Part shown: positions 1,933 through 33,494 of the stretch, one piece after another
Position numbering within the stretch: the stretch's first letter is position 1
How the letters are laid out: every line of letters starts with the position of its first letter
The notes under the pieces: generated by a model
Told to the model about the DNA's origin: nothing
Database searches by the model: none
Seen by the model: only the letters and a program-made list of their open reading frames with translations
Made by a program: the position numbers and the translations under genes
Assembly (NCBI GenBank): GCA_964658305.1
Contig: OZ210884.1
Span: 1,736,001-1,800,000, forward strand
Source: Leptogorgia sarmentosa
Lineage: Eukaryota
Direction: 5' to 3'
DNA: 64,000 nt

Positions 1933-2291
1933 CTCAAGGAAGTTCTCCAACGCCGGCGTCGTCCTCAAACAGCAGCATCGAGATCGTTGTAGGAATCACA
2001 GTTGCTGTTGTGGTTGTTGTTTCAATAGCGAATGTTGCCGTTTGTCTCCTGTTGAAACGGAAAGCAGATAAAAAGAGCACGGGAATAATGGCGAAGCAGG
2101 AAAACAATGGCAATGGCAATGGCAACGTTTCATCAGAAACCAACGAATTAGAAGAAATACCTAATCCAGTAAGTGAGTACAAAGAACCATCAGCATATGC
2201 ACAACTTGACAAATCCAAAAGAGTTCCAATTGATGAAAATTATGAAAGTTTGGGTGCCGTAAATCGTGTGGAACTGGAGACCAATTCTTAA
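1933..2291 (+). CDS. Terminal exon of a single-pass membrane protein (TM helix + tyrosine-motif cytoplasmic tail); upstream exons not identified in the window
   Basis: Acceptor tacag at 1928-1932, phase 1. Reads QGSSPTPASSSNSSIEIVVGITVAVVVVVSIANVAVCLLLKRK (hydrophobic stretch + basic stop-transfer), then YKEP, SAYAQL, YESL, stop at 2289-2291. Close paralog at 22300-22652 with the frame preserved through a 6-nt indel. Confidence 0.7.
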
Positions 2292-7800: not shown

Positions 7801-7975
7801 CTGCAAACTAACTACGTAAATATAATTATTGTACGTGGATTGCAAAATTATTGAAACAACTACGTATTAGTCCTACTAGAGACTAATCTTAAAGTGAGAC
7901 AAAATAAATGTTGATTGATTATACTGGCCTTTCAAAGGCGTTTCGTGCACATACTGTTTGAACCTATACTCTGTT

Positions 7976-10900
7976 TTAACGAACAAAGATGTACCCCATA
8001 GCCTGCACTTCCTTGTCGCCATTGTCAGCATTACAAGAACTAAAAGCGCTGTTGCCGCAGCTGTTGACTATGTTCCTCCGGCTGCAGTATCTTCGTTGGC
8101 TGGCATCGATTGCACCAAATCCTATGAAGGAATCTGCTGTCCGACAATCTTTCTCATTATTTCCTATAATGCCGATTCGAACCCGTGCGTGATACTTGTC
8201 ATCAGCAGCAACATTGAACCCTTGCCTTCCACAATATATTTGAAGTGAGGAATCGTCGTACAAAGATTTCCATGTGTTGCGAGGGATGTTAGTTGCGCGA
8301 AATTTTCCGTCTGCCAAGATATCGTACAAAGAATTTGCCTTGTAGCTGATTGGAATGAAACGAAGTGAATTGTTAACTCTCATTCCAACACAAAGCTGAG
8401 TAAACGGTGTGCTCCAGAAAGTTGCCAGTTTAGTTTCCGCGTGATCTAGTCCGGTTTCTCTACAGTTTATTGAGAAACTTTCCATATTGCTCCAGTACCG
8501 AGATGAATAAGAAAATGTTTCCTAAAAAAACGAACAGCACCTTGTTGAATATGTGAATAATATTTATAATCAAATAGAAGGCAAAATTACAAAAATCTGA
8601 TTGGCTAATGAGGAGGGCATTCTTTCTTAATTCCGGTGGCAAAATTACTTGGCTGAAATGCCCTGATTGCATGGCTGAACTTTCAGAATGTTTTTGTGTT
8701 CATTTTAGGTCGGACATTTAATCGCTTCCTCGCAGTATTTGTCGCGTGTGAAATCGACAAATTGAATTATTTTCAAGCAATTTGGTAAATATTTAAGCAA
8801 ATTTATTGAATAATTATAAACCTGGTACCCGAGACGGTTATTTAAGGGTCCACAAAACATTCTGGTTTCCCGAGGGCCCAGTCAATAAGTGCTTTATTAT
8901 ATACCAATCGTCAAAGAAACGACAAAAAAAAGCGGAACAAGTGAACAAAAATACACGAAATATTTTGTTTTGAGATTCACAAAAAATTCGCGCACTTTTC
9001 AGGTCGTCCAAAGGTCGCGTCTTCACGTGATGGCGCACGTGATTATTTTGTTGTTCCCCAGTGAATAACGTATTATCTCCCTCTCTTGCTGATGGGAGGG
9101 AGACAGTCTAATTTCGTCACTCTCACGTGACACGCTCCGACCAATGAAACACAAGAAAAAGGAAACTTTGAGGATTGGTATATAATAATTATCACTCATT
9201 TACTGAGACCGAGGGAAAGATTGTTTTTTGTGGCCCCGAGACCGCCGTTGTTGCCCGAGGCGAAGCCGAGGGCAACAATGGCGGTCGAGGGGCCACAAAA
9301 CACAATGTTTCTCGAGGTTTCAGTAAATAAGTGTTTTGTTATATAGTTTAGTGTCAAAATATGAATGAATTCACCGGTTTAATACTGGAGTGAACTTTGA
9401 AATAAAAAAACAAACATTAAACGGGGACGCCTTACGCCGTAAATGTTCGATAAATTTGAAAAACATCGTACGATTGAATGAACTTTGGACTTCACGGTTG
9501 ACGCGCATGCGCATTATGCCCAGTTAATTGTTTCCCGGTCAATAATTTTTTGATTTTTGACCGGTTGGCGAACATGACGTTTTGTGGACCGGCACGTGAT
9601 ACGGTTTTGTCCAATCAGAAAACAGGAAAATTGAACTTTGACACCAACTATATAACAATACTAGAATATTACTAGAATATAATTGCATTGAGCATAGAAT
9701 TCTTGATTTGAGTAAGGTGGGCGAGGGATTGGTAGTCATGTAATTTTGATTTTTGATCGTTGGATTTTGCAAAAATTATACTGTCGACGTGACTATGCAT
9801 TGTCTATAATTTAAGTTATTCAATTACTTTTCGAAACTATCTATCTATTATCGTTTTTTGTCTTTTATTTATTTTCCTTCTAAACAAATTAATAACTCGC
9901 AGTGCTTGTGTCCTGCATGTACAAGCCACCATTTTATACATTAATTCGTTCCGTTACATCTCATTCCTGCGGGCCATATGCATGCATGTGCCCCAAAAGG
10001 ACATGCTCAACCTTGGTGTTTAACAATCACTAACAAATACACAGAGCGATGAATAGTCTATGTGAGTGGATATATGACTACTTGAAATCGTCTCATTCAA
10101 TGAAATAATTATGAATAACCTTGTTTCCGTCGATTTTCATCACCATTGTCCATCCACCGCCTGAACATCCTTCTATTGGTGTCATATGACAATAAACGTT
10201 GGTGAAATTTGTGGATGTTTTAGCTTTAATACGATAGACACCATCTTGGGCCTGCCTGAAAAGTCGAATCATTAAAAAACTAGTTGCAACACAGCAGCCT
10301 TACAATAGAAGAATGACATTTGCCACGTACAGACCGGGCTTTAAAACATGTTTAACATAATTAATTCTTTGAAAGTTTGCATGGTGCCGGTGATGTTAAT
10401 ATTAATTTATAAAGTTTGTAGTTTACACCACGTAATTTCATTATTATTATATTATTATTACTATAAAAAAATTACGTGGTGCAAACTAGAAACTTTATAT
10501 AAATATTTAATATAGCTGCTGTCAACTTTGCGAACTGTTTCCTTTTTTCTATGGTTGAGCTAGCTATATACCGTAGAATGGACGAAAAATTCCGAAATTT
10601 AAATTTTTAAAAAGCCAGCCATCGTTCACCCGTTAAACAAAGACCTCAACGGGTAGTACCCGATATTTCTCAATTGAGAACATGGGTAATGCCCACGCTG
10701 GACTATCGTCTAAGTAGCCTGGCCTGGTAAATTATGAATAGTGATTGCCCGGGTCTATAATCATATGCATTTAGCCACGCCAGAGTGGTGAGCAGCGAGC
10801 TCGATTTAGCTCAAGTGGTAAGGCGCGCGGTGCGTGCGTTACAGTTCTATAGTTCAAGCCCCAGTTCGACACATTTTTTCAGCGTTGGTGATGAAAACTT

Positions 10901-13900
10901 TTTTTTCCTCAATATTTTTCTGACCACAATGGTCAGGGTTAGGATTCCAGGGTTTGGGTTGGGATTAAGGAAATTCTTAGTATATAGAAAAATGGTTTAT
11001 ATATCTAACACTAATACAACTAAGGGTAAGTATATTTTTGGAAGAAATTGAAAATGCTTAAAAGTAATTTTGAGTTTCTGGATGGAGAATTTGTTGGGTG
11101 TTGTTAGTAGTTTCTATTTCTTGCCACCCCAGGTCAAGGGAAATAATTTGGAAGGAGAAATACCGAATTAAAAAGAATCCAGTTCTGTTGTTAGAACAGA
11201 GGACACTTTAAATTCGTTAAGACAGTCTGTATAGAGAACGATTTATCGCGTACAACTTCTTGAATCTGTAAAAATAGCTTACTTATTCTCCAGTAAGACT
11301 TGGCGACATGAATTGTATACCATCTCTGGAAATACAAAAATGAAAGAAAAAATTAAGACAGACCTAAAATAGGTTTCTGTTGTTCAAAACCATTTCTGAT
11401 GTCTTCCAGACGAAGAATGTTATTTCCTTCCTATTAGCTTAAAAGACAGTTTTGACGCGGTAAACAGAAACCAACACATTCCTGACAACTTATTCACGGA
11501 TGATTTCCGATTTATATCTTTCGTTAAATCCTCATTTACCGACATACCGCTAGGCGCTTTACTTTTATTTTTAAAAGATTTACGACGAAAACATTAAAAC
11601 GACCACAATTAAGAAACACTCAAAAAACTGCTCCTTGATGCTTGCACCAAAACTCTTTACTCTTTCTAATGAAGATCTTCACAAATTAATAAATTGACAG
11701 ATTTTCGATGGTCACGCGGGCCTTTAAGTCACACTTCGACCTTCGATGATTGCATTATAGAAGACCAAATTATAAAACACCTTTTCAAAAACGAGACTAT
11801 ACAATTTTACATGAGATATGTTGGTTATACAATTCTGGCCATACGGTTCGATATTAACCTTTTTTTGAAATAACTTAACAGCTACCATCTGCATGCAGAT
11901 ACAGTTCACGCAAACTAACATCAAAGGGCACTTCAATTTTCCGTAAGCTAGAGTACTAACACAGACGAGTATATCCAATTATCTAGTTTGACTCGTGGTC
12001 GTATAAATTTGCAAAATTTATGTTCGCCTCCCTTACATAAGTAAATGCAGAGCTGATCTTATACAAAAATTGCACGAATACCTAGACATCTGCTGGATTT
12101 CAACAAATTAATTGTACAGCCACGGGTCATCGCGAATTGTTGTCAAATCTCCGTTATCGCAACGAAAATAGGCATAAAATGGAAGTCATTGCGACTTTTC
12201 ATTTTGTTTTGTAATGTTTTTCTATTTCGGGACAAATATGGCGCCATTATGCAAATTTGTCGGCCCATAAATAAGTTCGCTAGGGGGCATGCCCGTCTGC
12301 CCCCCCCCCCCTACCCCCTTGCCCCCCTAGCACGCCACTGTTTGGGATACCCTGGCGCTGAATCAAAAATGCTTACCAAATTTGGAGTTACCGTTGCTTT
12401 GTATTTGATGAAAATATTAAGTTGTTCCCGCAATTTTTGGCGCTTAGATCCCATTATAAAACCAAGCGCAACCAGTAGCTGTTCACGTCGAGCGTTGTTT
12501 ACGAAGAGGATCTCTGTGTGTGTACGAATTGTCAAGATGGCTCCTTACAGTTTATCAAATCAGTGGTTGAAAATGTATAAATTCATCACTTGACTTTATG
12601 AAGTCAAATTACATTTTTTGTTGCAATTTATGGTTTATATACAATCATCCCTCTTTGCCCTCCTAGACGAGTTCTTATACTATTTTTTTATTCAATTAAC
12701 CCTAGTGGGAAAAAATAAAACATCTAAGCCTGGTGTTTCTTTTTAAATCACGAAAGACTGCAGGGTTTTACTAAATGAGAGATGAATAATTTTACGGGGC
12801 GAATGCACAATGACAGTAAAATGAGGTATTCCTAGGCATTGTGGTAAAGAAAACGCCACAATTATTTCTAGAATGTTCAAACCAAAGTGGGCTACTTTAT
12901 TTACACCTTTTTAAACTAAATTTTTACCTACTTCCGTTTATCTCATCCACTTCGCCTCTCAGTTTGGAAATCTCATCTTCCATTTCGGACAATAAGCTTG
13001 TTATTTCCTGAAGTTCGGGTTCACAAACCCCCATTTCACCATACGCGTATTTTTGTCGTGTCAGAGAGGTGATTCTGTAATCATAAATATATGTTATATA
13101 CCGGCTGGTAGGTCCGGATTTTCCCAGCCGGATCGACCTAAACGGTAAAATTTAATAACGGATTTATTTTTTTGCTGCGCAATGCTATGATCAAATTCAT
13201 AAGAAATTCCAGTGTAGTGAACTAGATTTGAGATCAGTTGTATTTGTTAAAATTATTTCTTAAAATATAGAAGAGAAATTAACTTTAAATTTATATAAAT
13301 CAACCGGTTATAGTATTTTTTTAAAAAGGATGAATTTAAGTCGGGATAAACTGCAGGTTTTCGATATATATTGCAATTTTTTGCCATTAAAACAAACATA
13401 CAAAAGATTTTTTATTTGCTTCGGCCATTACGGATTTAGGATTCCGGACCGTGGTCAAATATCGTAAAATTCCGCCCGCTACTGCAGCCAATCAGATTGC
13501 AGAAAACGCCCGCTGCTGATTTGCAAAAAAATAAAAGACATTTATCCTACGCAATAGAAGGTGAGTCTACAATGTTGGCATCACTACAGCACTAAAAACA
13601 GAATTCGATATATCGAGTAGATACTCTTTGTTGTTTCTTTGAATAAAAATTGTCGCTCAAAATCGCATATTTTCTCCGTTGAGAATTTGCATGGCGCCGA
13701 GCATTGTAAGTTGGAAAATTAAAATGAAGGAATTCAATGGGGCTTAGGTGGCGCAGTGGTCAGTGGCCACTCGCCTTTCACCTCTGAGGTTACGGGTTCG
13801 ATTCTCAGAGAGAACTTTCTCAATGTTACTCGATCCCAGTGCTCCACTCATGTGAAAAGAGTCAGTCAACACTCTGCGTAAAGTCGTGGGTTTTCTCCGG

Positions 13901-15835
13901 GCGCTCCGGTTTCCTCCTACAGGGAAGTTGACAGGGTGGGTTAGGATAAACACAGCTAGGGAAGTAAATCTCAATTGTTGTAAAAATAGCTAGTTTAGAT
14001 TAAAAAAGTAAGCTTAACACTTGATGTAATCGGCCACTGAAAAGCCCTTATGGGGAGTGAGCTGAATAACACGCTGTAACTGTAACTGGAAATTAAAATG
14101 AAGGAATTGAATATGTTACAAGCCTGACTATTGAAGAATGCGAGAGACCTAAATCCCGCTTCGGTCAATGCCAGTTGTCAGAAATGTGGCAGTGTTACGT
14201 ATTCGTAGCGTTTTAGCGGATACGGGAACGCGTAAAATTTTTAATCCGCAAAAAAATGTTTTGCGGATACAAACGAATTCGGATACGCGCGGACAGGGCT
14301 CACTTTCCATTCTCAATGAAAATTATGAAAATATCCGATTTCTACGAGCAATTTTTATTAATGCTCATTCACACTTTCCTCATTTTGCCCAAAATGCTGT
14401 ATGCTTTCTATTGCTCTATTCGATCAAAGCCTAGCTGATGTGAATTTTTGGTGTATTCATCAAAACTTTAACGTCTGTTCACTTTCTACATATATTCGAT
14501 CGAAAATGTACAGCTGTATATACGATTTCAAGCCGCAATTTGAACTGCTGGAGCCCGTTTGTACAACTAGACGCAATGTAGTGTTGTTAGATTAAGTGAG
14601 TAAGGGGCTGATTACATGGAGAATTTCAGCTAGGGCTAGAATTTCAGCCCGGCTGCTGACGGATTGGAAAGAGGAATAGAATTTGAGTAACAAAACGTCA
14701 TGATTTCAATACACACTTCGCCTGTCTTTGTGTCTTTTATGCTAATATCATTGTAGTCGTCAATTTCCTGGACGCTGATTGGCTAAAAAGCTTCAACAAC
14801 TGAGCGAATTAAAAATTAATTATACAGGTGTGTAATTAATTTTCAAATTCCACACTTCGAGCCCGCGATATGCGAGCGGTAAATATAAAAACAAGTAAAA
14901 CTACAGTAAAATTTTTGTTTCTCGTATAAATTTATGATGGATTTTGATTTGTTTGAGATTGAAATTCCCCCGAAATTGATTACAATTATATTAAAAAGAA
15001 ATTACACTTGTTCTCGAAGTATTAATGAAAAATTGCACTTGTGTTTGGCGAAACCATGTAATTTCCTATATAAAAAATTATTCTACTCTTTTCCATACGT
15101 CAACATCCGGGATGAAATCCCAGCCCGGGCTGAAATTTCTCCATGTAAACAGCCCCTAGCTAGTAGAAACAAAACCGTGAGGATAATTTTTACTATGAAT
15201 GGAATCATTTTCAATTGAAGATCTGCTTTGTTTTCCCCATTTCACGGGTCGGTGATGCTCAATCACAATTCAGCTTCTGAACAACACAGCCACAGCAGAG
15301 ATTATATAGATCTCGCCGTGAGCTCGATCGACAAGTCAGTGCTTAGTAAACGTCTAATCGCCTAAGATCACCTAAGATCGCCTGAGATCGCCTGAGAACG
15401 CCTAAAATTGATAATGATTGCCTATGATCGACAGTATCGACATATATTACATACAAAGAAATACGCATTCTGGACTTAATAGGGGGTCTGAATTGAGAGA
15501 CCGAGGTGTGAATTAAGGCATAAACTTTTTATAATCCAGAATAAATCTTACATAAAATCACCCAATATTGCTTAAGATCGCCCAAGAGTGCCTAAGATCG
15601 CCAAAGATCGCATAAGAACGCTCAAGATAACCTTGAATTTTGGCATTTTCCCCCTAAAATGGCAAATAATCGCGGCGATTTTGGACCCTAGAGTAGGCCT
15701 ATCATTGATACTGTAAACACAGTGTGTTAGTTCTGTCATTGGCCACATTATAAATTAAACACACACATGTATAGCTACTTACAATCCGACATAAAGCAAG
15801 ATCAAAGCAAAATCCAGAACGCTTGCTCCTTTCAT
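7976..15835 (-). CDS. Secreted coiled-coil + fibrinogen-N-like protein, resembling coral 'uncharacterized skeletal organic matrix protein 5'-like family (paralog A, 306 aa)
   Basis: Exons 15835-15783 (MKGASVLDFALILLYVG, signal peptide), 13074-12932 (CEPELQEITSLLSEMEDEISKLRGEVDEING, coiled coil), 11325-11283 (YNSCRQVLLEN), 10255-10120 (DGVYRIK...VYCHMT...GGGWTMVMKIDG), 8521-7976 (ETKLATFWSTPF...SLQIYCGRQGFN...RIGIIGNNEKDC...). All introns GT-AG with matching phases; total 921 nt = 306 aa + stop. Family name is from recall, not a search. Confidence 0.85.
10797..10872 (+). repeat. tRNA-derived (SINE-head-like) sequence followed by GGGTT-rich repeats
   Basis: A-box-like TAGCTCAAGTGG and B-box-like AGTTCAAGCC, but no convincing cloverleaf. 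Followed by ggtcagggttagg...gggtttgggttggg at about 10930-10970. Confidence 0.4.
13735..14089 (+). mobile_element. tRNA-derived SINE with V-SINE-like central domain
   Basis: Head with A box TGGCGCAGTGG and B box GGTTCGATTC; central GGGTTTTCTCCGGGCGCTCCGGTTTCCTCC; (CTGTAA) tail; 19-bp TSD AAATTAAAATGAAGGAATT at 13716-13734 and 14090-14108. Confidence 0.88.
14603..15157. mobile_element. MITE with ~28-bp TIRs, carrying a nested repeat also found at about 5395-5700
   Basis: AGGGGCTGATTACATGGAGAATTTCAGC ... GCTGAAATTTCTCCATGTAAACAGCCCCT; a partial copy of the right end is at about 16185-16263. Confidence 0.65.
15352..15632. repeat. Two short arrays of a 10-bp unit GATCGCCTAA
   Basis: 15357-15430 and 15570-15632 contain degenerate tandem GATCGCCTAA/GAACGCCTAA units. 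Confidence 0.7.
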
Positions 15836-16786
15836 GATGTCAATTGGTTTGAACTGATTATCATTTTGCATTTCTAGCTGTTATTATAATTATTTAAAAT
15901 GGCAAGACGGAGAGAAGTTTCAACTTCCTGGCTATACAAAAGTTTAAATTATAATCTTTTTCTTCGTTATAGAAACATCGATATTTATAGATAATTTCGG
16001 CACACCTACATTATGACTATTGTAGTTGATTGCTGCTATTTACAAACAATGTCTTATCGAACAAGGAAAAACAGACTGGCTGTTATCATACTCGTTTCTT
16101 TTCAAAGCCTCTATACAAGACCTCTAACTTATGAATAACAAAAGCTCATAATTTAATACAACACTTTGTGTTTCTTATTCAAATTTTTCTACTCTTTTCC
16201 ATACGTCAACAGCCGGGATGAAATCTCAGCCGGGGCTGAAATTTTTCCATGCAAACAGCCCTTAAGTTTGGAACTTCAGTACTTAATTTACCAACATGCG
16301 AAAATGACTTTGTAATTTCTCACGCAATAGTTCCAAATTTGGTAATGCAATAGTGTATTGAAACAGGAGACAAAGACATTTTATTGAAACAATCATGCAT
16401 AGCATTCTTGCTTGTTTTTCGAACGCCAAATTGCTATTGGATATTATTTCGTTAGGGATTGCTGCCTTAAAGAAGTCACTTCATTTATCCTCCATTTATC
16501 CAAATAGATGTATGTGTAGAAGCTATGAAATGGACGGTTATGATAAACAGCAACAAAGTTTTTCCTTGTTCGATAAGACATTCAAGACTAGTGTAGTATT
16601 ATTTGATAGGTCTGCATAAATTATCCATAAAGAATGATGTTTCAATAACAAGAAAAATTTTAGTTGTATGTTAATTTAAGATTTTGTATAGCCAGGAAGT
16701 TTAGGAATTTTGCCGTCATGCCCTTTTAAATATATGGGAATTTAACTTGAAATGCGAAAAATAATCAGTTCAAACACACCAACATC

Positions 16787-16839
16787 ATGAAATGGGCAAG
16801 CGTTCTGGATTTTCCTCCGATCCTTCTTTATGTTGGAAT
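16787..16839 (+). CDS. Duplicate / alternative signal-peptide first exon of gene C
   Basis: ATG at 16787, MKWASVLDFPPILLYVG, phase-2 donor GTAAGT at 16840. Lies in an ~800 bp block (about 16270-17070) duplicated at about 17590-18420. The two prolines may weaken the signal peptide. Confidence 0.45.
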
Positions 16840-18111
16840 GTAAGTGTGCATTTGTGTGCATTAAATTTATGATGTATGTTTCTAACGACAGAAATATCAG
16901 CTTTTAATATTGTGCCTACACTGCGTGCTCATCGGAATCTATTATAATTACTTATTTATACATACTGTAAATTCGAAACCCTACATTACTTCTGGTTGTA
17001 GAAAACATAGTGGCGTCTAGGTCAGCGATAATCAACTCGACATCGGAATAAATGATTGTTAATTATAATATTACATAATGCCGGATTAGGGTATACGATT
17101 GTAATAGATTAGTTTGTCTTGTACACGTTTCTTACTTTCACAATATTCAAAGTAGGTCAATCAGGTTGGAGATATTATATAATTATCATAAAGAGAGATT
17201 GATTAAAGTCATACCTGTATATATAAATATATTTACGATTTCGTTGCTGTACTCAAATATTCATGCATGCAGTACCAGTAAACAATTGTTCACAAGTGCA
17301 AAACCGACTTTATTTCAGTATTTCCGTAATTTAGTTCTGTACTCAGTACTTTAGTCAGTACTTAAGTTGAGGACTTCAGTACTTAATTCACCAACATGGA
17401 AATTTGGCTTTACAAGTTCTTTCGCAATATTACAAATTTGATTAAAGTCATACATGTATATAAATATATTTACGATTTCGCTGCTGTACTCAAATATTCA
17501 CGCATACAGTACCAGTAAACAAATTGTTCGAAAGTGCAAAACCGACTTTATTTCAGTATTTCCGTAATTTAGTTCGGTACTTCAGTACTTAAGTTGGGGA
17601 ATTTCAGTACTTAAGTTCTTTTGCAACATTCCAAATTTGGTAATTAAACTTGCTTTAAAAAATGACCGGAAATCGACTGTAACGTCATAGCTACCTATAG
17701 CTAAAATGAAGCTAGTATAGGATATTGAAACAGGAGACGAAGACATTTGATAGAAACTGTCATACATGAATAGCATTTTTGCTTTTTTTCGACCGCGAAA
17801 TTGCTATTGCATATTATTTCGTTAAGGGATTACTTCATTTATCTTGCATTTATCTATAAGTGAAAGGTTTATGATAACAGCCAGATATTTTCCTTGTTCG
17901 ATAAGACATTGTGTGTAAACGGCGGCATTCAAGTGCTATATTATTTGACTGGTCTGCATAAATTATCTATAAATATTGATGTTTTGTATAAATATTGAAT
18001 GTTAATTTAAGCTTTTCTACAGCCAGGAAGTTGAAATTTTACCGTGGTCATGCGTTTTTAATAATATGTCCTTGAAATGCAAAATGATAATCAGTTCAAA
18101 GCAAAGACGTC

Positions 18112-21100
18112 ATGAAAGGAACAAGCGTTCTGGATTTTCCTTTGATCCTTCTTTATGTTGGAGTGTGAGTATACATGCACGTGTATTAAATTTATGATGT
18201 GATGTATGTAGCCAACGGCAGAAATAGCAGCTTTCAATAATGGGCTTACAGTATGAGTAATAAAACTGCGTGCTCATCCTAATGTGTTATATAATTACTT
18301 ATTTCTAAATACTGTAATTTCGAAGCCCTACATTGCTTCTAGTTGTAGAAAACCTAGTTGGGTTTAGGTCACTGATAGCTATTTGATAATCACCTCGAAA
18401 TCAGTATAAATAATTGTATTAATAATCAACAATTAGATTATGAGCTCGAGATTTCTATGAGGTGATAGTTGATGAGGGCGAAGCCCGAATCAACTATCAT
18501 CTTGTAGAAATAGAGAGTGAGACTGTTTAAAGTCATACCTACACCTATATACACTGCTAAAATCATGCTAGTATAGTATGAGAGAGAGTATGAAATGAAA
18601 CTAAGCGATTAGGATAGCAGCCAGACAGTTTTTCCTCGTTTGATGAACAACGGCGGCATTCAAGTGCAATATTATTTGACATAGGTCTGCATAAAGGGGT
18701 TTCTGTAAAGAACGGAAACCGAAACGACCGAAACCGGAAAAATTTTGTCAGTATATTGTGCGTGCTTGAGCATCTTAATCTATACATAATTAAGAGTATT
18801 CCACTACTTTCTGATGGGTTTTTTGTTATCATTGTTCGCATTATCGTTGCATGTAGAATCAGTCTGATCTTCTCTTATAATTGCTAGACTCGTAACAACG
18901 TGGATTTATTAATTCTACGTGTATACCAATTAGACGCTTGCTCAGAGGGTAGCCAGGATTTTTGGCCAATTATACGTAGGGCCAACAATAACCTAAAGGG
19001 GGCCACTCGACTCCTATATAAAAATCGGTGATATGAATCAACAAATATTCACAAAACAAACCCATTGTAAAGTGATTCATTGAACAAGAAAGTGTCTTGT
19101 ATCCATGTTGTGCACGGTGACGAAACGCTCACGTCATGCTTTTCGTACTGTTAGGTAATTCAAATCTTGGGACAATGATTATAACAATAATATATATACA
19201 CAAATATATAACAATGTGCCTTCCTGGTTATCATCATACGGTTGTACATTGTGGTACGAGGTTACATTGCATTGAGGAGGATACCGTGCGTAGCGTGACG
19301 TAAGATTATAAATAGGGGAGGGGAATCTGACGAGGCGCCACGATGGTTGGCGACGTGGGAGAAAAATTTGAACATTCAGGAACTCCTAGATTGCCGGTAC
19401 TTGCCATTGCCGGTAACGGCAATAACGGCATACACTATTACATGATTTCAGACTCTTTAATCTACGTTTTTAATCTACCTCGCCTACAGGCGCTTTTATT
19501 CTTGTAGTGAGTTTTCCCGACAATGGTGATCAGTAGTTTTTGTGTTGAAATTGAAAAAATTGTATCTGTCTTGATCGATTTGGAAGAATGTTTCGTTAAC
19601 GTTGTTTTAATTTATTGTTACGTTAATATTTAAGAGGGAGGCCAACATTCCAGGGGGGGGGGGGTTCTCGTGAGAGAACTTATTAAACAGCCCTCTCGTC
19701 TTAACGTTCCATCCACAGCCCTGCGGGTTCTCCAAGAAAAAAACAGTGATTCATTTTGATACCATAATTGTAAATTGATTGTTGCGTAGAATAAATATCT
19801 CATGTTCTTATTACAGAATCAACTGAAAATTTCCCACGTAGGTAACAGATCTTGTTGACATTAATTAATACGTATATATTTAACAATTCACATATTTTGC
19901 TACTCGCTATCTATCGAGGAATAGATAGCGAGTAGAGTAGCCAATCAAATTGCAGCACTTGCAATAGTATACGAGTATGATTCTACTAAACATATATATA
20001 TATACATATATACAAAACGTATAACAATGTGCCCTCCCGGTTATCACCATAATAGCCTTATGGCAACTCCTGAACTTGGGCACAGGATGTAAGGTTATAT
20101 ATATATATATATAGGTATATATATAGGTTATATATAATTATTAATATATAATTAATTTTATATACAATTAATGATTTTTAGCATCAGTCTTGCCAGCTCT
20201 CTCGATACTGGTGAAGGTGTTACTGAACAAAATACGAATGAAAAGTGCCCTGTTAAGCCACATCTTCAGGAAATAAGATGCCTCTTGTTAGCAATGAAAG
20301 AAATTAACTCCAAAGTGAAATACAAATTGTCCCAAATAAACGGAACATTGTCGAAAAAGGAAGCGAATAAAAAAGGTGAGAACAAAATAGCCCATGTTGT
20401 ATTGCTAAAGCACTCTTGAAACACTTGTTGCATTTTCTTCGCCACAATGCCTAGGAGAATGTAAATTTGCTGTCGCAGTGTAGGGCGTAGGGGCGTCAAT
20501 GTGTGCGTTGGGGGGTAGGGGGGGGGGGGTAGGGTTGAACACGCTACCAGTAAAATGTCATTGCCGGTCTCAAGATTGATTAAACTCATAATAATAAAAA
20601 ATACTAGTAAAAAAAATAAAAATATAAAAATAATAGTACAAATCGTCATATCTCAAATATATATTTTTCCGAATAAAGCAGTTATTGAAAACTTGTTACA
20701 TTAACTTATTTTAGCTCTATAGTGGGTCTAAATTCGCATATCAGTATTGATCGGTCTGATTTCCATGAGGCACCCCCTGCCATATTCGATACTTACGCTC
20801 ATGATAACTCTATCGATCAGATTCGTCATAACGTAGGTTGATAACGAATTCCAAATTAATTGCAACACTTTTTGCACCCAAGAAATGTCCATCTCTCATT
20901 TAGTGAAACTCTACATTATTTGGTAAGTGAGATTCGCATTAATCAAAACTGCTGAAGAACAACGAAAAAATCGTTGGCTCGAGCCGCGGAATTCGAACTC
21001 GCAAGTTTGGGTATCTAGACCGCTGCTTTACGTACAAATTCATCTACCCAGGCAACTGGGATTGGTTGCAAGTCATATCCAATTTAAGAGGATGAAATAT

Positions 21101-22652: not shown

Positions 22653-25600
22653 AAGTATCTTCTCAAACTCATTAATAATTCATGAGGAAATACACCAATC
22701 GAAAACACACATTTCGTCACGTGCATGAGTTGTGAAACCCCGGTAATAAACCAACAATTGATTTAATAATTGAGAAATTAGATAATAAACGCTTACGCCT
22801 GAGAAGTTATTTCATAAACTTGTGACACGTGTTTTACCGGGGTTTCCAAACCCTTGAGAATAATTGAATTAACTCGACTGTTCACCGCGCGATTTTCTTT
22901 ATTGTTCCCTCGTGTATGTTAAACACTCAAGACAATAAAAACCACTCGGCCGTACCGGCCTCGTGCTTTGATAGCCTTTCGTGCTTTACACACTCTCGAG
23001 AACAATACAAAACGCTTGGTGAAGAGTCTCGTTAATTCAGTTATTCTCGCGCGTTTGGAAACCCCGGTAAAACACTCGCACTCGTTTATGAAATATTACC
23101 TCCCAAATGGCGCGACGTTGCCAACCAATACACTGACCCTTTCGGAAAGCATACGTCAGCAAACTCGAAAACGAGGCCGAATCGCTAAGCCGTTGTAATA
23201 ACTAGAATTTATTTTTTAGTTTGACAAATGTGTAGACAGAGACAGTAGAGAATGTCAAATATGTTACATTTTATAACATACTGTGCTGTTGCTAACTGCA
23301 GCAAGCTTGCAGCATACAGTAAATCTGGCTGTACTAATATAAAGGACTTAATTTTGCCGACGTATACTTTCCGAAAGTGTGTATTCGGGTAGGAAAATAG
23401 TGTTTTAGTTAAACCGTCAGAACCATTTTTAAAATCAGTGTGGCAATGGTCCATTCGCTAAAGTTTAAAAAAAGTTGAAGGAAAAAGGACAATTTCTAAA
23501 GTTGTAAGATTTTCTTGTTTATTTTTGAATAACTATTTTCCTCAGGATAAATGCATGGTGCAAGAAATTGCTAATAGACATGTCAAGAATGTCTTATAGG
23601 AGTCATGAAGTTCACCATTTTGTGCCCTAATCATTTTTGGACATTTGTGAAACAACTAGAACTATGTATTTACAAATAAAAAATTTGACCAAAGTATTTT
23701 GCCTACGCGGTGCATGATTGAGATAGAAAGCAGGCCTTTTGCTTTGCTAACCAAAGTAGCCTTGCATTTTCTACGAAAGCCGTAAGTTTCAGGCAAAAAA
23801 ATTGTTAATTGTATGTTGTCGATGTATTTATGTAACTAGAGATGGAGGCTCATTAGGTGTATGGCATCATTAACATTTCGTAACCGGTAAATGTTGTAAA
23901 TCAGATATAATGGACAATTACCATTATACACTAACTTCTGAACTAAAAAACAAAAACGGGACTTCTGGAAGAACATTATTGATATTAGTAGCAAAATCGC
24001 AAAACAATTATTTGGAATTAAAATTTAAGGTATCAACCCGCTTCCTACATGATCTTTTCGGTTTGGGCATTTTATGACGATCGGAATGGCACAAGTCTGA
24101 AGGAGGGGGCGGGGGGGGGGGAGGTGCAGTAATCTATATGAGGGGCAATAATCTGCCGTCCTGTTACCCAGCAAAACAGGTGATAGTCGATTTAATTCGG
24201 GCGAAAAGCATGAAATTCTTATGCTCCAAGACTCAATTCACCCATATAATAAACGGAGTATTCACCTCGCTTGTTCGGTCAATTACCCCTTAGTATTGTA
24301 CATGTAATGTATAGTTTGCAGTTTTGTGTACTCTGATTTCTAAAGCGAATAAAATGATGTTCTCCTTACGCTTAACAGTCTTTCCCAGTTGAAGATTTTA
24401 AATTTATAGTTTTGCAAAGCACAACTTCTTTGATTTGCACGAACTATATCTTACATGTATATGACATAAAACACGATGACGATCAATGACACTATCAGAA
24501 TATGTTTTGACAATTTTATATGGATTTGTAGCCAGTTCCCAACTAAAGTTTGTAATTCAAAAATAACAGAAAAAAAACGATAGAAAAAACAAAAGAACAT
24601 AAACTTAAGGGAAAAAATGAAAAATTTGTTAACCAATTTAATTATTACGATAATTGTAGACATACTTACTAGTTTTTACGAAGATTTACTAGTCTGTGAG
24701 TATGACTATAAGCTAATAATAAAATGTGTTTATTTGTTGTATCATTTTTGGACGGTTGGACCAGTGATTTTCATCTCGGTGAGCAAATGTGGGCCATTCC
24801 ATGCAATTGAATCTAATTATCGCAAATGCATTGTAAATTTAGAAACCGAAATGTTGTGTGAATTATTCACAAGAACATTTTTATAAAACGGAAGGTAATC
24901 TGAACCAAATTCATAGTATATCGCTCTCTCTCAAAAAAGAAATTGTATTATGGCAAAAAAAATATTTTAAAAATTTCTGTTCTAAATTTGAAGAAAATTT
25001 GCACGGTAGCAGATTTGATGGTAACACGGCGGATGCCACACTTGCAATTGCAATTTTCGCCGTCTGCATGTTCCCAAAACTCACTCTTTGCTGAGCTACT
25101 GTGCCAGGGACAGCTCGTGAGTTCAACTTTCAGAAAACTCTCAAAAAGCACCCTTTTCCTTGAAGTGCCTTTTTCATGTTCACCTGCCAATGCCAATTGC
25201 TTTTCTTACCGAATCCGCCCCCCCCCACGTCTCACCGAACTCCAATGTCGTTCCTGCGTCCCTGAAGCTATTTTACATGTAATACGTAGAGTGCAGTTCT
25301 GAAATGTTTCCAGTGAGTGAACAACGCCTGTTAGTCAGGTAGGATTGCAACGTTAAAATTCAAAAATTGAAATGGTGAGTGAATCGTGAGGATCTGTGGT
25401 GGCAAGAAGCAATTCCCGACACTATTAATTACCATATTTGAGAGCCAAGAATATTTCATGAAGTTAATTAATTAACGTCCATACGAACCAAATTTTGAAA
25501 ACACTAATTCTACAATTAAAATAACACCATTTGTAAGAAGAACTTTTACCTATACCGGGCAGCTTTGTTACCTGATTTATATTACCTTCCAACATGTACT

Positions 25601-26870
25601 CTTGCGATATCTGTCTTCAAAGCTGTTCTAATTAACGCTGCGGCACCTTGGTTCGGTTTATATTGTTCTTTAAAACACGGCCAAAACGAGTACGGCTATA
25701 TTCCGAAGTAGTAAGCTCTAATTTGGATGAAAGCGATCCAGCAACTTCTGCTGCGGCGTTCCCAAAACTTGTTCATACAAACTGGCTAAAGAATTACTCG
25801 TTAAAAAATTAAAAATTGCAAGTTTGAAATTGTTCGAAATTCTTTGTAATGCATTTTATAGGTTTTACCTTCCAATCAAACAGGTTATATTTTTTTGAGG
25901 GGGGAAAGGGGGGGAGGGCACACACGGTATACCAAATTAAGTTAGCCTTCTCTTAACATTATAAAACTTACCTGGATGCAAGAGCTGGTTTAATTCTTAC
26001 ATATTACATTGTATTAAATCAAACACCGATACTTCAGTTTTCGATACAACCGATATATTCATATGTCATAAAAACGCATGCACATGGTACATCAAATTTA
26101 GATAAATTAGATGTCAACCACAGTTACAGAGATAAAATTAAAACTATATACCTGCAAACTAACTACGTAAATATAATTATTGTACGTGGATTGCAAAATT
26201 ATTGAAACAACTAAGTATTAGTCCTACTAGAGACTAATCTTAAAGTGAGAGAAAATAAATGTTGATTGATTATACTGGCCTTTCAAAGGCGTTTCGTGCA
26301 CATACTGTTTGAACCTATACTCTGTTTTAACGAACAAAGATGTACCCCATAGCCTGCACTTCCTTGTCGCCATTGTCAGCATTACAAGAACTAAAAGCGC
26401 TGTTGCCGCAGCTGTTGACTATGTTCCTCCGGCTGCAGTATCTTCGTTGGCTGGCATCGATTGCACCAAATCCTATGAAGGAATCTGCTGTCCGACAATC
26501 TTTCTCATTATTTCCTATAATGCCGATTCGAACCCGTGCGTGATACTTGTCATCAGCAGCAACATTGAACCCTTGCCTTCCACAATATATTTGAAGTGAG
26601 GAATCGTCGTACAAAGATTTCCATGTGTTGCGAGGGATGTTAGTTGCGCGAAATTTTCCGTCTGCCAAGATATCGTACAAAGAATTTGCCTTGTAGCTTA
26701 TTGGAATAAACCGAACTGAATTAACTCTCATTCCAACACACATATGAGTAAACGGTGTGCTCCAGAAAGTTGCCAGTTTTGTTTCCACGTGATCCAGTCC
26801 GGTTTGCCCACCGCCTATTGAGTATTCTTTCTTATTGGTCCAATAAGAGGACGAATAAGAAAATGTCTCC
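22210..26870. repeat. Segmental duplication, copy 2
   Basis: Direct homology to about 1845-8521; for example, ORFs 7958-8248 and 26309-26599 translate identically. Confidence 0.9.
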
Positions 26871-29800
26871 TAAAATACAACAAAATGAACAGTGATAACA
26901 TTTAGAATTAAAGACGCAGTACTAGTAGTTATACAAATAACTACTCTGCGATTCGGACTTGGTTGGGAAAATACCCATGAAGGTTCAGCTAATTGCAATC
27001 GTCAAAAAATGTAATCTCTTTCTTTTACTTCGTACATGATAACCTAGACTTGCTTTGTGTTTCCAAAAAAATAATATCTAACAAAATGTTGCTGTAATGA
27101 CAACAGAAATTCTAAAAGATGCACTCTCGGGAAATTTGTATACACCGCACGAGTTATTTACTATAGCAGCTTAAATTTTTCCATTCTTAGACACATTAAC
27201 TTACCTTGCTTCCGTTTATTTTCATCACCATTGTCCACCCACCGCCTGAACATCCGGGTAATGATGTCATATGACAATACACTTCAGTGAAGTTTGTGGG
27301 TGTTTTAGCCTTGATACGATAGACGCCATTCTCGGCGTGACTGAGAAAATATAAATTTGGGGATCGTTGTTTTATACTCAGTTTGTTAATTGCCCGTATA
27401 ATTCTCATCCCTAGGGATAGCGCTACTTACGGCGGAGGCCCGAAATAGCCTTAGTATCGGTTGAGTATATATTTTATTAATACTAACAATATTATTATGC
27501 CTGATCTCTGTTAATTGTAAATGCACAAGCGTGTTGCAATGGACATTATAACAACTTCAAAAACGCGTAATTAGCAGCGAATTTGTTTCTGGCGATATTG
27601 TTGGGGAAGGAGAAGAAAACAATTTTTCTCCATGATTTTATCGGTAAAATGTCGCAGTATGTATTCAATTACGCCAGGGACTGGCAAGTACCAGATGAAT
27701 CTGTTCAAAACCTACCTAATACTTGCTCTTGTACAAATTCTGTTTCTATATTGGCCCCCTTCACAGAAATAGCCATGGGGCAATGCTTATTGTTTATACT
27801 GTAATGTGATAATTGTTCACTGCATTAAATTTTAATGTCTCGAGCTAAGTATCATAGAGGTAAGAAAGTATCGAATCGAAAGCATTTTAAAGTATCGAAT
27901 CGAAAGCATTTTTTGGTCACAAGCTTATTGTGTTTTACTAACAGGTTAGTAAATACTTGAGCTTCAGGGGCCGGGCACCACGAAAAATCTTGGATTTGAA
28001 AAAAAAACTATTAAAGCCGTGCCTTAGTCAACAATCTTTCATGTGTTTTTCCAAAGAAACCTACTAAAATGGTAGAGTTTGGATTCCGAAATGGTCATTT
28101 CCGGCGATCTAGAGATCCTAAATGTTAAAAATGTTATCGCTCGGCGCCAACCATGATGGCGTCCCGTGAGTTCCACCCCCCCCCCCCCCCCCCCCACATT
28201 GTTGAAAACATTCCTACGTCCAAGTGGTAATTTGTTCAAATTGTGCAAAAATTCAATTCAACTCGAACTCTTAAAGAAGTATCAACTAAATAGCAACAAT
28301 TTTTTGCAACACTTTGCAACAAACATTTTTTTAAATATTATTCAAATGAAATGTGGAAACACCGTAAATGTATTGCGTATGCAATGGAATCGCAATACAA
28401 CAGGAGTCAATTGTTTCAAATACATTGCGAACTTACAAATGGACATTCACTGGAACTTAGAGACTCAAAATTGTTTCCATAATCATTCGTATTTCAACAC
28501 TACACTTCACATTTTCTCAGTAAAAACATTTCAACATCGCCCTCATTTCTCGGCGGCCGCAGTCTTTGAATACGTCATTGCAAACAAAAGGTCATCGCTT
28601 GATTACAATTCAAGTAAGCTAATCGCAGATTGGCTAACAAAATTAAATTGATATAAGCTCATCGGTGAATGGCTATGTGCTAACACATTTTGCGGTGTAG
28701 TAAGGTACGGGACGCTTGAGATAGCAATATACCTGCTTTGAAGATATAAAAACAACAGCGAGGTATATTTACGTTTTAAACAGTGTAATTTTCAGGGATT
28801 ATTCTAACGAAATATTAAAACTTCAGTGGGCTCCAAAACTGTTTGCGTGTGTAGCTGTTGTGAATGCATTTTTTATTCATGAAAAATATTACAGAGCTCA
28901 CATAATGTTTCATGTAAGTGAGTAAGACCTTTACATTACATGCTGCGTTTCGCCAGTTCATGATATATACCCTAAAGTCTTATTGGAGAAGTCTAACCAG
29001 TGGTCGGAACCAAAAATTGAGGTGATAATAATTACATTTTTTTCACGAATATTGGAAACGTGGCAGCAGAAGTAAAAACTCGAATATACCAGTCATTGCG
29101 AAGTTCGTTCGTAGAAATATTTTTACAACTCCAAGAAGTGGCAGCGAATTATCACTCGTAATTTTTAAAGCTTTAAATCTTCATCTTTTTCATCTTGGAA
29201 TTTTACACATTGGAAATTATCAGTCATGCATGGTCGCTTGAAACATATAGCAAAATTAACGGCATTGTTTTCACGATTTCTTGTTATCACCTGTTGAGAG
29301 GTAAAAACTGGCGAACAAATTCTTCCGTTTCTAAACTGCGCCAGGATCAACAAATTTTATGAATCGATCGCCGGAAATGACCATTTCGGAGTCCAAACTG
29401 GACCTTTTTCGTTGGCTTCTTTTGGTATACAAATGTATGATTGTTGACTAAGGGCCGGCCCCCTGGAAACTTAAAATTGGGGGCCCCGTTGCTCCGCCCG
29501 TTTCCAACGTCCCTGCATGGTAATTCCAAAGAAAATTTCTGTTTCCCTATTTTGGCTTGCTATGGTACTGGTTTTGTATTGCTTTAAATACTGCACTCAG
29601 TTCATATTTTCAGGCACAATATTGGTGAGAATGACTACCCTACATCTGCTGTTGCCGGGCTTTGAGAACTAAAAGATATCAGAATTTTTCTTTTCCCGTT
29701 CTAGTTCAGAACTCGTAAATAAAATTCACCTGTTTTCCAATAAGGCTTGATGGCACGATTCGTATGTGGTATCATCTATATAACATAATACATGGTAGGA

Positions 29801-32800
29801 TTGCAAGGTCTGAATGTTTTTCTTTCAGGCAAAAGCATACATGTCATTATATAGTAAGAAATAATTATAAGGTGATATTTTCTTTTATTTTTTTCCGGTC
29901 CGTAACTCCCGGTCCGTAACCTAAATAGAGCTTTCTGATTGGTTGCCGAGCGGTCCGTAACCTACTTTACGGACCGCTCGCATGCATTCTCGTAGATTTA
30001 ATTACAAATATAGCCAATGTTTTTGTTTTTTAAAATTGAATGGCCGCTTATTAAAATATTCAAAACGAATTTAGGCGATAAAGAACACATGAAAGTTCAT
30101 TTTATTATGCTAAGGGATATTTTAGGGGGTATTTACAGCGACAAAAACTCATAAGTATCAACAAAGTCTCATCAGTATGAACAAAACAAAACATTCTCGG
30201 CGAAATATTTCGCTGTCTAAAGCGTATTTTAACCATGTTTGTATCGTGAAACGAACGGGAAAATAAATAATTTTAATAAGTTTACCTTTTTCGTAGTAAT
30301 CTTGAGTGTGAAAGCGTTAATATTGAAGCAAATGCGTCAATTTTGAAGGGTTTTTTCTCACTTCGTCTTGGCTGTTTAGCAGGCATACTTTCGATAGAGT
30401 AGCAAAGTAAACAAACAAACTGATCTCAAAATCTAGTTCGCAACACTGGAATTTTTGACGAATTTTATCATAACATCGAGGGGGAAAAAATAAATAAGTT
30501 ATTTACCATTTAGGTCGGTCCGTACTGGAAAATATTTTGTCTCGGTCTCAAAAACGTCCCTCGGCCTTCGGCCTCGGGCCGTTTTTGAGACCTCGACAAA
30601 ATATTTTCCAGTACGGACCTCCCAGCTGGTAAATAACATATATTTATCCCCAGGAAAATTCATACCTTTTTTACAAGCATTTCTTTGGATCACTCGTTCA
30701 TTTATTTGGTCAACTTTGTTATTCAATTTGGTGATCTCATTTTTCATTGATGACAAAAAGTTTCTTATTTCCTGAAGTTCAGGTTGAAGAGCACAATTTT
30801 TACCAGTCTTACTTCGATGTGTAATACATATTTCTTCATTGGTGCGGAGAGAGATGTCGAAAGCATTGACGCTGAAATAAACAAATGTTTAGGAACTGAT
30901 TATATGCTAACCAATCCGTTTCATTAGATAAAATCAAATATTCTGTTCAATCATGGAGTATGGTAACTATTTTGAGAATAGTCATACGCGCATAAATCAT
31001 ATTGCTACGCGCGTAATAACAGAAAAATTCGTCTTTTACAGTCCACATGTTTGATAACTGGTCACGTAATCATTACCAGAAATTTCAAACATGGTTACCC
31101 TCACTTAAAGTGGCACTGTCATGAAAAAATTGTCTATCTAGTTTTCATTTTAATGAAACATCCTTTCAACATAAGGCATCACTACACTACTATCATTTTC
31201 TCAATATATCGTCTACTTCATAAGATATTCGCCTCTTGAAAATATGCAAATTACACATTGTATCGATTATTATTTCCATGACAGTGCCACTGTGATTCTT
31301 GAGCAATTAATTGTATAAGTTAGTAATGGTTATTCTCAATGGTTTATAACCTGTGCTAAGCCATACAATTCTTTATACAGCCGATAGAGTTCAATTGGCA
31401 GAAACCAAACACGACATATGCATGTTGCGATAAATAGAATATCAAGGGATCTGATAATAAATTTAAACATAGTAACAGCGTAGCAAATCATCATGCATGC
31501 TTGAATGGCTAGAAATTATAACCTGTGAATGTCTTCGCTACATGGCGAAGAATACCGAACACTCATGTGCACAACGTACGTTGACTTAGAAATATTTTGA
31601 GTCAAGACGTGAGACAAGTATTACATGAGTTTCATTGGAGAAACAAACAAATGACTTCCCTAAACCTGCCACTTAAGTAAGATATGTTTGATATTTCAAC
31701 CTTTACAAGATCTAACGATACACAAGGTTTGCAAATATTGCAAGGAATTTGCTTAGCAAGATATCATTTGCTCGATCGTCATTAAAAGCACTTAATTAGT
31801 CTCAATCAATTTTAAAAAGTCAATATGACTTGCTTTCAGGCTGAAATCTCTTTTTCCTCTCTCTCTTTTGGAACCATAGTCCATAGTCACTTTTAATGTT
31901 GATAATGGGTAAATTCTAGAAAGATTCAGCTTTCCATTGGTGACAGGTCTACAATAGTGGATCTTTTATAACAACGAGATCATCGATCGTTTTAACAAAC
32001 CAAGAAAGCCTCGTAGAATCCCGCTAAGTCGAACTCGCTTAATAACTCGAACTCTCCGCTAACTCTAACTAATTAAATACGATTTCGCCTGGATTTGAAA
32101 CGAGGCTGGTAAATTTCGATTGCTTAAATCTCATTAGTCGCAAGCGTAATTTCGATTTAAAAACAACAGTTTAACCAACTTATACACACAGTATAGCTTC
32201 AATTAATAGACCATATTAATTAACAATGGATTGACATTAGAACAGCACTTTCAGCAGTGGCGCCGGCAGGATTTTTTTTTTAGGGGGGGGGGGCAATGAC
32301 CCCTTTTGATATAATTGATCACTTACATGACGCATAATTTTGCTTTTCCACTTTTATTTTTTTTCATTATAAAAATGAAGACTACTATATGGAAAACATT
32401 GGGGGGGGAGGGGGGCAGTTGCCCCCCCTTCCCCCCCCACTTGCCCCCCCCCCCTTGCCCCCCTTGCCCCCTTGCCCCCCTTGCCACCCTTGCCCCCCCT
32501 TGCCCCCCATGCCCCCCCCTTGCCGGCGCCACTGGCACTTTGGGATTCTTTGTTAATTTTTTATTCATATAAAGCACCCGAGTGCAATAAACGAAATTTA
32601 ACACATCCCTCGTTAACTCGAACCCTCGCTAATTCAGTTATAATTCGAACAATTTTCCGTTTTCCTTGAGAGTTGGAGTTAGCGGTGTTCTACTGTTTTC
32701 ACGGCACCATTATTGAATTCACCTATTTAATTTTTTCAAATAATGAGGGCAATCCTGTCTGAAATTTCTTGTAGTGATAATGTAAAGATGCTGAAATGTC

Positions 32801-33494
32801 ACCCGTATAGATGTGTGAAGTGACATAATTTAATAACTATTGAGACGCAGATTTTTGTATGTCACGTATCTCGCGCTTAAAACTCACATTCGTCGAAATA
32901 TAAATTTCAAATGTTGAGGTTTCTCAGTCGACAGACTCACTTAAAAAGTTTGATAGATTCATAATTAATGATATAAAACGAAAATAAAAAAAGGTTTTGG
33001 AGGGTACCCCAGAGAGAAAATTACGTTTGAAATCTTGCATTTAATGTTGAAATCAAGGCTTCATTCATGTTGCGCTGGTTATACGAACATTGATGTTCAT
33101 AATTTTCATATTCCCTTTAGTTTCTCAGACATAGTTTCGAAGATAGCAAACATTTTTATCTAGACAATAATCATCGAACAATTTGATTTTGAGAGGAACG
33201 CCAAAACGATTTCTGGTTTGATCACATTTCAACAAAATACATGATATGGAAAAAATTAACTGCTTAATTTTTGAGAGGGATCATTAGTTAAATGCGATCC
33301 GGAGAAAACCATGGCGAATAGAAAATATCATCAGGTTGCAGGAAAATCTAACACTCACTCTATAATGATTAACTCTGCGTGCATGTATGATGAACATTCA
33401 AAATGCAGAAGAAGAAATCAGTAATTTGGTGTACTCACCTTTCACGATACAGCAAGATCGATGCAAAGAAACCAAGAAGGCCGGCTCTTGTCAT
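26327..33494 (-). CDS. Secreted coiled-coil + fibrinogen-N-like protein, skeletal organic matrix protein 5-like family (paralog B, 328 aa)
   Basis: Exons 33494-33439 (MTRAGLLGFFASILLYRE), 30871-30666 (...CALQPELQEIRNFLSSMKNEITKLNNKVDQINER...), 29775-29730 (TYESCHQALLEN), 27340-27205 (NGVYRIK...VYCHMT...GGGWTMVMKING), 26869-26327. GT-AG introns with the same phases as paralog A; 987 nt in frame. Confidence 0.85.
32255..32534. mobile_element. hAT-like MITE with TTGCCCCCC microrepeats, nested in a Tc1/pogo-like MITE (about 32013-32696)
   Basis: TIRs CAGTGGCGCCGGCA...TGCCGGCGCCACTG; GCACTTT on both flanks (imperfect TSD). Outer element ends GTAGAATCCCGCTAAGTCGAACTC / GAGTTGGAGTTAGCGGTGTTCTAC. 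Confidence 0.7.
32840..33270. repeat. Interspersed repeat family, three copies (about 32840-33270, 42060-42465, 62066-62460)
   Basis: Shared blocks such as TTGAGGTTTCTCAGTCG, CTTAAAAAG and ACAATTTGATTTTG in the same order. Confidence 0.8.

Follow-up and report, generated by a model that had tools for sequence, protein, structure and literature searches.

A predicted chimeric membrane-protein gene carrying the coiled coil of a secreted, probably intelectin-type neighbour in Leptogorgia sarmentosa

The DNA analysed here, 64,000 nt of the Leptogorgia sarmentosa contig OZ210884.1 (positions 1,736,001 to 1,800,000; the whole stretch is called the window), contains two minus-strand genes, A and B, for predicted secreted coiled-coil proteins and, between them, a plus-strand gene, C, in which a similar coil precedes an EGF-like exon, a transmembrane (TM) helix and a tyrosine-containing tail. 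The locus raises the question of whether C is the signalling anchor of a split receptor that holds A or B at the cell surface, as the first-pass annotation had proposed. The evidence favours, at a probability of roughly one half, a different answer, namely that C is a predicted expressed young chimera encoding a membrane protein whose coil is a loose oligomerising stalk and not a dedicated anchor for A or B. The window is AT-rich and intron-containing, and its proteins have their nearest named relatives in Xenia, Dendronephthya gigantea and Paramuricea clavata.

Gene models

Gene A (minus strand, 15835-7976) and gene B (minus strand, 33494-26327) each comprise five exons and predict proteins of 306 and 328 aa, respectively; gene C (plus strand, 18112-22652) comprises four exons and predicts a protein of 233 aa. 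All three have GT-AG introns and stop-free frames, and the C junctions that had been singled out for checking (18164/20182, 20375/21637 and 21738/22300) are GT-AG and leave the 233-aa frame intact in the genomic sequence. Signal peptides were predicted from hydrophobicity only. The exons are as follows.

15783..15835, minus: A exon 1; ATG, predicted signal peptide, phase 2 donor
12932..13074, minus: A exon 2; Cys and four-heptad coiled coil, net charge -6
11283..11325, minus: A mini-exon 3; first Cys of the fibrinogen-related domain
10120..10255, minus: A exon 4; fibrinogen N-terminal subdomain, GGGW motif
7976..8521, minus: A exon 5; USOMP5-like C-terminal part, stop
33439..33494, minus: B exon 1; ATG, predicted signal peptide
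30666..30871, minus: B exon 2; coiled coil, net charge +2; relatives P0081-P0084
29730..29775, minus: B mini-exon 3
27205..27340, minus: B exon 4; fibrinogen N-terminal subdomain
26327..26869, minus: B exon 5; USOMP5-like C-terminal part, stop
18112..18164, plus: C exon 1; ATG, predicted signal peptide
20182..20375, plus: C exon 2; coiled coil evidently copied from the A lineage, Asn at one core position, net charge +5
21637..21738, plus: C exon 3; degenerate EGF, phase 1-1, five Cys
22300..22652, plus: C exon 4; Ser-rich stalk, TM helix, tail with NPxY, YEEP and YxxL-x11-YxxL

The exon-2 peptides previously given for A, B and C all match the sequence, and the identical intron phases reported for the three genes were recovered (phase 2 after exon 1, phase 1 after exon 2). 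Homology had been claimed for both exons; it was found for exon 2 in each of the three pairs (z 8.6-17.2, with an equal score in 0 of 2000 shuffles), whereas for exon 1 it was strong between C and A (z 15.7) and weak between C and B (z 2.3, with 70 of 2000 shuffles scoring as high). The exon-2 donor of A lies about 28 nt upstream of the donor common to B and C, and a Cys stands ahead of the coil in all three genes. The exon chains of A and B do reach the globular domain, as annotated, but the frame is kept only if a mini-exon (43 or 46 nt; 11325-11283 in A, 29775-29730 in B) that had been missed is added. In the B-type relative P0081, exon 2 is read through into mini-exon-like sequence, in another frame as judged by eye.

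Origin of the 5' half of C

Self-comparison of the window revealed two pairs of inverted copies shared by A and C, one covering the promoter and exon 1 (A 15744-16098 versus C 18201-17862, 76% identity) and one covering exon 2 and the first ~100 bases of intron 2 (A 12812-13013 versus C 20474-20264, 68% identity). Divergence between A and C was about 16% substitutions in the upstream DNA and 23% in intron 2. The promoter-exon 1 block of C is itself repeated in tandem, which gives rise to a second intact exon 1 (C').

17862..18201, plus: C promoter and exon 1 block; inverted copy of A 15744-16098 (76%)
16787..16839, plus: C' exon 1 copy, in the tandem copy of the C promoter block (~16261-17360)
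20376..20474, plus: start of C intron 2; homology to A intron 2 continues over this segment, where the A-derived copy ends

Because inverted homology extends over the promoter, exon 1, exon 2 and the start of intron 2, the 5' half of C is evidently derived from the A lineage by inverted duplication. The 5' part of C is thus homologous to a single parent, A, in its non-coding DNA too; the 3' part comes from an unrelated gene family, and the two are joined in one open frame at canonical splice sites. The earlier suggestion that C arose by exon shuffling is borne out, the route being an inverted duplication of the 5' half of A in front of the EGF and TM exons. No other 5' partner was seen for these exons, since the EGF exon alone had a Pfam match among the 93 plus-strand open frames of at least 42 aa in 2292-22300.

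The promoter block of B was only 51-53% alike to those of A, C and C'. Two short motifs near the start, TCAGTT and AGGAAG, which may be initiator-like and ETS-like sites, are nevertheless shared by the B block with these others.

Two positions in this region carry another letter in sequencing contigs: 16818 in C' exon 1, where contigs of two of three DNA runs change Pro to Leu in the hydrophobic core, and 15784 in the last codon of A exon 1. These variants are probably alleles or further copies.

The duplicated block and the second TM gene

The first-pass annotation had noted that a TM gene facing a secreted gene tail to tail occurs twice in the window, the second TM gene being the one named C0 here.

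22271..26875: duplicated block with TM exon, spacer and last exon of the secreted gene; counterpart 1899-8527
1933..2291, plus: C0 TM/tail exon, paralogous to exon 4 of C, with 19 differences over 116 codons and a single 6-nt indel
615-757 and 1521-1615, plus: candidate C0 upstream exons, placed from phases and splice sites only

The arrangement is indeed repeated, in that the two places are 87-91% alike over a block that begins some 30 bases ahead of the TM exon and extends to where the last exon of the secreted gene starts. The coil pairing, in contrast, is single: C0 shares only the TM exon with C, no coiled-coil or EGF exon was present upstream of the C0 TM exon in 1-1932, and the candidate exons at 615-757 and 1521-1615 are unrelated to the coiled-coil and EGF exons of C. 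A coil-bearing TM gene therefore occurs once, and the repetition, explained by the duplicated block, was rejected as support for a common function. Neither candidate C0 exon had a Pfam match, and 615-757 had no Atlas match either; the latter holds a DSGxxS-like stretch.

The last 110 codons are identical between A and B (7976-8305 and 26327-26656), whilst the first 70 codons of the same exon differ, with a synonymous divergence (dS) of 0.31. This identity evidently reflects recent gene conversion. Outside the block A and B are old paralogs, with unalignable introns and, in exon 4, a dS of 0.44 and a ratio of non-synonymous to synonymous divergence (dN/dS) of 0.29. Because the duplicated block ends at exon borders, the pattern suggests conversion between two older units.

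Probable domain fold of A and B

The last exon of A and B was 40-49% identical to seven longer proteins, one of which is the A. millepora USOMP5-like protein P0004 (46-49%). In the Atlas it fell into unnamed cnidarian clusters, and the nearest cluster with a name was intelectin-2 at 0.89, a lead only. Both genes contain the N-terminal Cys and GGGW subdomain of fibrinogen-related proteins; exon 4 scored 30.1 bits in A and 29.1 bits in B against NF040941 (cut-off 30), and the match of A exon 4 to PF00147 (E 0.003) was below the cut-off. The domain was matched at 1e-30 in 39 of the 61 bacterial genomes searched (L001-L038; G001-G061). In bacteria, a USOMP5-like domain ends many large proteins, several per genome.

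The evidence on the fold comes from the relative P0004. A 45-row alignment built with the bacterial relatives was used to predict the P0004 fold, with a predicted local distance difference test (pLDDT) score of 87; an earlier model from 11 sequences had reached 53. The top six Foldseek matches of the P0004 model were intelectins. In VIA-align it matched human intelectin-1 with Z 15.6, a root-mean-square deviation of 3.4 and 15% identity over 208 residues, the next fibrinogen-type domain having Z 8.8, and the top seven matches, over residues 85-316 of the model, covered the whole fibrinogen-type fold. A and B keep Asn, Asp and Gln at alignment columns where 43 of 43 or 41 of 43 rows agree; these are columns of the alignment and not positions matched to the calcium-dependent glycan site of intelectins. 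Since P0004 is predicted to fold like an intelectin, A and B are likely to be secreted coiled-coil proteins with an intelectin-type fibrinogen-related domain, and the earlier idea that they carry a recognition domain gains support from the same model.

USOMP5-like proteins are filed with the intelectins by PANTHER, and for this reason the link between USOMP5 and the intelectin fold may already be present in databases. PMC6321704 describes placozoan proteins that PANTHER files with intelectins. At passage level, two papers naming both skeletal organic matrix proteins and intelectin contained no link between them, and the passages obtained from PMC7853314 and PMC11959691 held nothing on USOMP5.

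The EGF and TM/tail exons of C

The EGF exon annotated in C is present and in frame, but it is degenerate: it scored 19.6 bits against EGF_3 (Pfam cut-off 28.5) and, when aligned to the EGF domain of D. gigantea P0017, had lost Cys 1 and 2 and gained one extra Cys. An intact EGF domain in C exon 3 was ruled out, as the canonical six-cysteine spacing is absent.

A search with the TM/tail exon returned 48 proteins at E <=0.001, three of them (P0049, P0051 and P0052) being weak matches to unrelated large proteins. The pattern YxxL-x11-YxxL was present in 38 of the 48, as well as in C and C0, and an arginine at position 9 was invariant in all 40 of these motifs. YEEP often stands ahead of the motif, which is sometimes repeated, and the ectodomains are varied (P0008-P0055). 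The species-named members among 17 of the 48 matches that were looked up are from P. clavata or D. gigantea, both octocorals. Because the TM/tail exon follows EGF (P0017), CUB (P0032) and Calx-beta (P0069) domains, it is a mobile module. Two metagenome contigs (P0008 and P0056) encode a C-type tail that is 98% identical over 63 residues, with all tyrosines, and closer to the C than to the C0 version.

Wider definitions of the immunoreceptor tyrosine-based activation motif (ITAM), with a spacer of 6-12, would include the 11-residue spacer. The strict form (Yxx[IL]x6-9Yxx[IL]; 10.1101/2022.03.04.482883) was rejected, the spacer being 11 in C, in C0 and in 38 of the 48 matches; only one of the 48 had a spacer of 6-9 residues. 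No description of the YxxL-x11-YxxL tail was found in the literature at the level of passages and abstracts.

Selection on C and properties of its coil

Against a splice-site matrix built from only 8+8 sites of A and B, the donors of C ranked between the 91st and 99.7th percentiles of 357 GT sites and its acceptors between the 86th and 97th percentiles of 302 AG sites. In simulations of neutral evolution, exons 1 and 2 of C survived intact with a probability of 0.014-0.076 (8-10% substitutions and 0.5-1% frameshifts per base), ranging from 0.21 under the mildest setting to 0.002 under the harshest. The TM exon had 0 frameshifts versus 4.7 expected (P 0.009). The frame of C is thus probably under selection.

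Its residues, by contrast, appear only weakly constrained. For the coil, dN/dS was 0.97 between A and C, 0.96 between B and C and 0.32 between A and B, and for the TM exon of C versus C0 it was 0.73, which is not significant. A neutral dN/dS had been named beforehand as a finding that would count against a split receptor. In a branch model allowing a one-codon shift, the ratio for the coil was near 1 on the C branch (0.89) and 0.30 for A and B, which goes in that direction, but with 29 codons the difference is not significant.

In A and B the heptad core reads L-I-L-M-I-L-V-I, in C it is L-I-L-M-N-V-L-I, and the net charge of the coil is -6 in A, +2 in B and +5 in C. Attractive g-e pairs number one in A-C and two in A-A. 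A prediction of the complex of two A coils and one C coil, run without an alignment or folded controls, scored 0.27 and 0.25 against a mark of 0.34, values that speak neither for nor against co-assembly.

Search for relatives with the architecture of C

The first-pass annotation had suggested looking for the same order of signal peptide, coiled coil, EGF and TM in relatives, and none turned up, all searches being of weak power. It was found in 0 of 285 candidates among the longer proteins with the TM exon; coil alignment gave 1 of 1154, which was a genomic read-through of a B-type exon; and metagenome pattern scans gave 0 of 593 and 0 of 376 confirmed matches. Neither coil alignment nor the metagenome scans, both weak, detected an ortholog of the C coil. 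In the literature, as covered by passages and abstracts, no description of this architecture was found.

Interpretation of the locus

According to the favoured explanation, an old tandem unit of a TM receptor facing a secreted intelectin-fold protein would have been duplicated, and in the second receptor, now C, the flipped 5' half of A would have taken the place of the original 5' exons. Since both sides are phase 1, the join would read through, and later conversion would have left the blocks from TM exon to last exon 87-100% alike. The copied promoter would drive C in the cells of A, with selection holding the frame, splice sites, TM helix and tail whilst residues of the ectodomain are free to drift. 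Like its counterparts in the parent receptor family, the tail would undergo phosphorylation and recruit SH2/PTB proteins or endocytic adaptors, and any mixing of C with A or B trimers would be a by-product. For C we infer transcription from the copied promoter, splicing, a membrane location, oligomerisation and tyrosine signalling. Partial duplication is a well-established source of chimeric genes, among which a twin-tyrosine membrane module bearing the coil of a secreted intelectin-fold protein would be a new variant.

Several points weigh against this explanation. The indel rates taken from flank alignments may be over-counted, and the frame of C exons 1 and 2 could date from an earlier full-length paralog. 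The dN/dS contrast in the coil failed to reach significance in either a likelihood-ratio test (p 0.058 ungapped, 0.39 gap-aware) or Fisher's test (0.059 and 0.36, respectively), and would fit positive selection as well as decay. C retains seven of the eight hydrophobic core positions, and a basic C coil opposite an acidic A coil suits a hetero-oligomer. C0 extends beyond the window edge, and its 5' exons are predicted ones.

In the split-receptor reading, C and A (or B) would form a disulfide-linked coiled-coil trimer that holds the intelectin-fold domain at the surface, so that ligand clustering acts on the twin-tyrosine tail. C would then be a receptor being born: by co-trimerising with its parent lectin, it would make a cell-surface receptor of a soluble pattern-recognition protein without fusing a binding domain; the coil charge shift and the excess of amino acid changes would represent selection for the hetero-trimer. 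The C coil is a direct copy from the A lineage, downstream of a copied A promoter set head to head with the original; its core is largely kept, its net charge is opposite to that of A, and the Cys before the coil is present in A, B and C. The predicted fold of P0004 points to an intelectin-type domain in the secreted partner, human intelectin-1 is described as a disulfide-linked trimeric lectin for microbial glycans in the passages obtained from PMC9434060, and ANGPTL8 and ANGPTL3 provide a precedent for a coil-only duplicate that binds its parent (PMC4172915, likewise from passages). Despite these points we regard the reading as doubtful: no extra constraint is visible on the C coil, an Ile in the core has become Asn, A-C has fewer attractive g-e pairs than A-A, and the weak searches detected no relative with the architecture. 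The repeated linkage gives it no support, because the second TM gene lacks the coil.

The possibility that rearrangement left C behind as a by-product that is not expressed or is decaying, with a truncated inverted copy of A lying in phase ahead of what is left of an EGF-TM receptor, is also unlikely, though the least so of the alternatives. It agrees with the near-neutral coil, the dN/dS of the TM exon, the decayed EGF and a region rich in recent duplications, and the phase-1 join needs no selection, since the phase-1 donor came with the A exon and the EGF and TM exons are themselves phase 1. Yet the frame, the start codon and all six splice sites survive a flank divergence of 16-23%, both exon-1 copies are intact, C and C' still carry the motifs that they have in common with the old paralog B, and the C-type tail recurs in the two metagenome contigs. 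An assembly artefact, with two haplotypes or repeats joined in tandem, is very improbable. The similarity of the TM-to-last-exon blocks would fit it, and among the contigs listed none spans C exon 2 to exon 3; against it, A and B differ strongly outside the block, and contigs of the three DNA runs cover 30 of 30 bins of 15000-34000, with 0-2 differences at C exon 2 and 0-7 at exon 3. These runs come from one sample, possibly the assembly's own source, and hence are not independent. Their contigs are DNA-like and contain no splice joints.

Even if read cautiously, this locus, in which both parents are present, illustrates how new ectodomains are acquired in octocorals by a mobile phase-1 TM/tyrosine exon. 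The conserved twin-tyrosine tail, with its fixed 11-residue spacer, on many likely octocoral receptors is a candidate for an ITAM-like input to SH2 signalling in cnidarians. For the 'uncharacterized skeletal' USOMP5 family, an intelectin-type fold suggests lectins over purely structural matrix proteins. Binding of C to A would make the locus a direct example of a secreted lectin turned into a two-chain receptor.

Comparison with known systems

Small membrane proteins that hold a separate subunit or supply tyrosine motifs include PRiMA/ColQ, for acetylcholinesterase, and DAP12/FcR-gamma; they have no homology to C and bind through proline-rich or intramembrane contacts instead of a coil taken from the gene of the partner. 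ANGPTL8 is closer, being a duplicate with a signal peptide and coiled coil but without the fibrinogen-like domain that co-precipitates with its parent ANGPTL3 (PMC4172915); ANGPTL8 is secreted, whereas C, known from sequence alone, has an EGF exon, a TM helix and a tyrosine tail.

The A. millepora skeletal protein P0004 has, like A and B, a signal peptide, a helix and a globular domain (PMC3748352, in the passages available, which call USOMPs orphans without a stated fold). The skeletal location belongs to that protein; A and B are known here from their genes. The P0004 model shares its fold with the intelectins human ITLN1, XEEL and lamprey LSVL, at the low identity given above for intelectin-1, and A and B add a four-heptad coil.

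Hydractinia Alr proteins are single-pass receptors with paired YxxL in a genome that has Syk/Shark-like kinases (10.1101/2022.03.04.482883, passages); their ectodomains are Ig-like and their ITAM spacer is 6-9, whereas C has the fixed spacer of 11. In Xenia, 10.1101/2022.12.13.520278 describes LePin, a secreted soft-coral lectin working with membrane scavenger receptors, but its domains differ and no exon is shared with a receptor.

Other features of the window

An intron-containing phosphatidylserine decarboxylase-like gene lies on the plus strand at ~44030-46407 (PF02666, E 3e-28), with a 7-bp satellite of 67 copies in an intron (44566-45031). A multi-exon gene on the minus strand (~49950-61540) combines a dynamin-type GTPase N-terminus with a protein kinase C-terminus. 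The 705-bp inverted repeat at 38711-40302 (98% identity, short spacer) is a likely fold-back element. High-copy dispersed repeats are present at 825-1426 and 29907-30525, and at 32839-33268, 42039-42468 and 62063-62462; the copies within 15000-34000 had very high contig depth.

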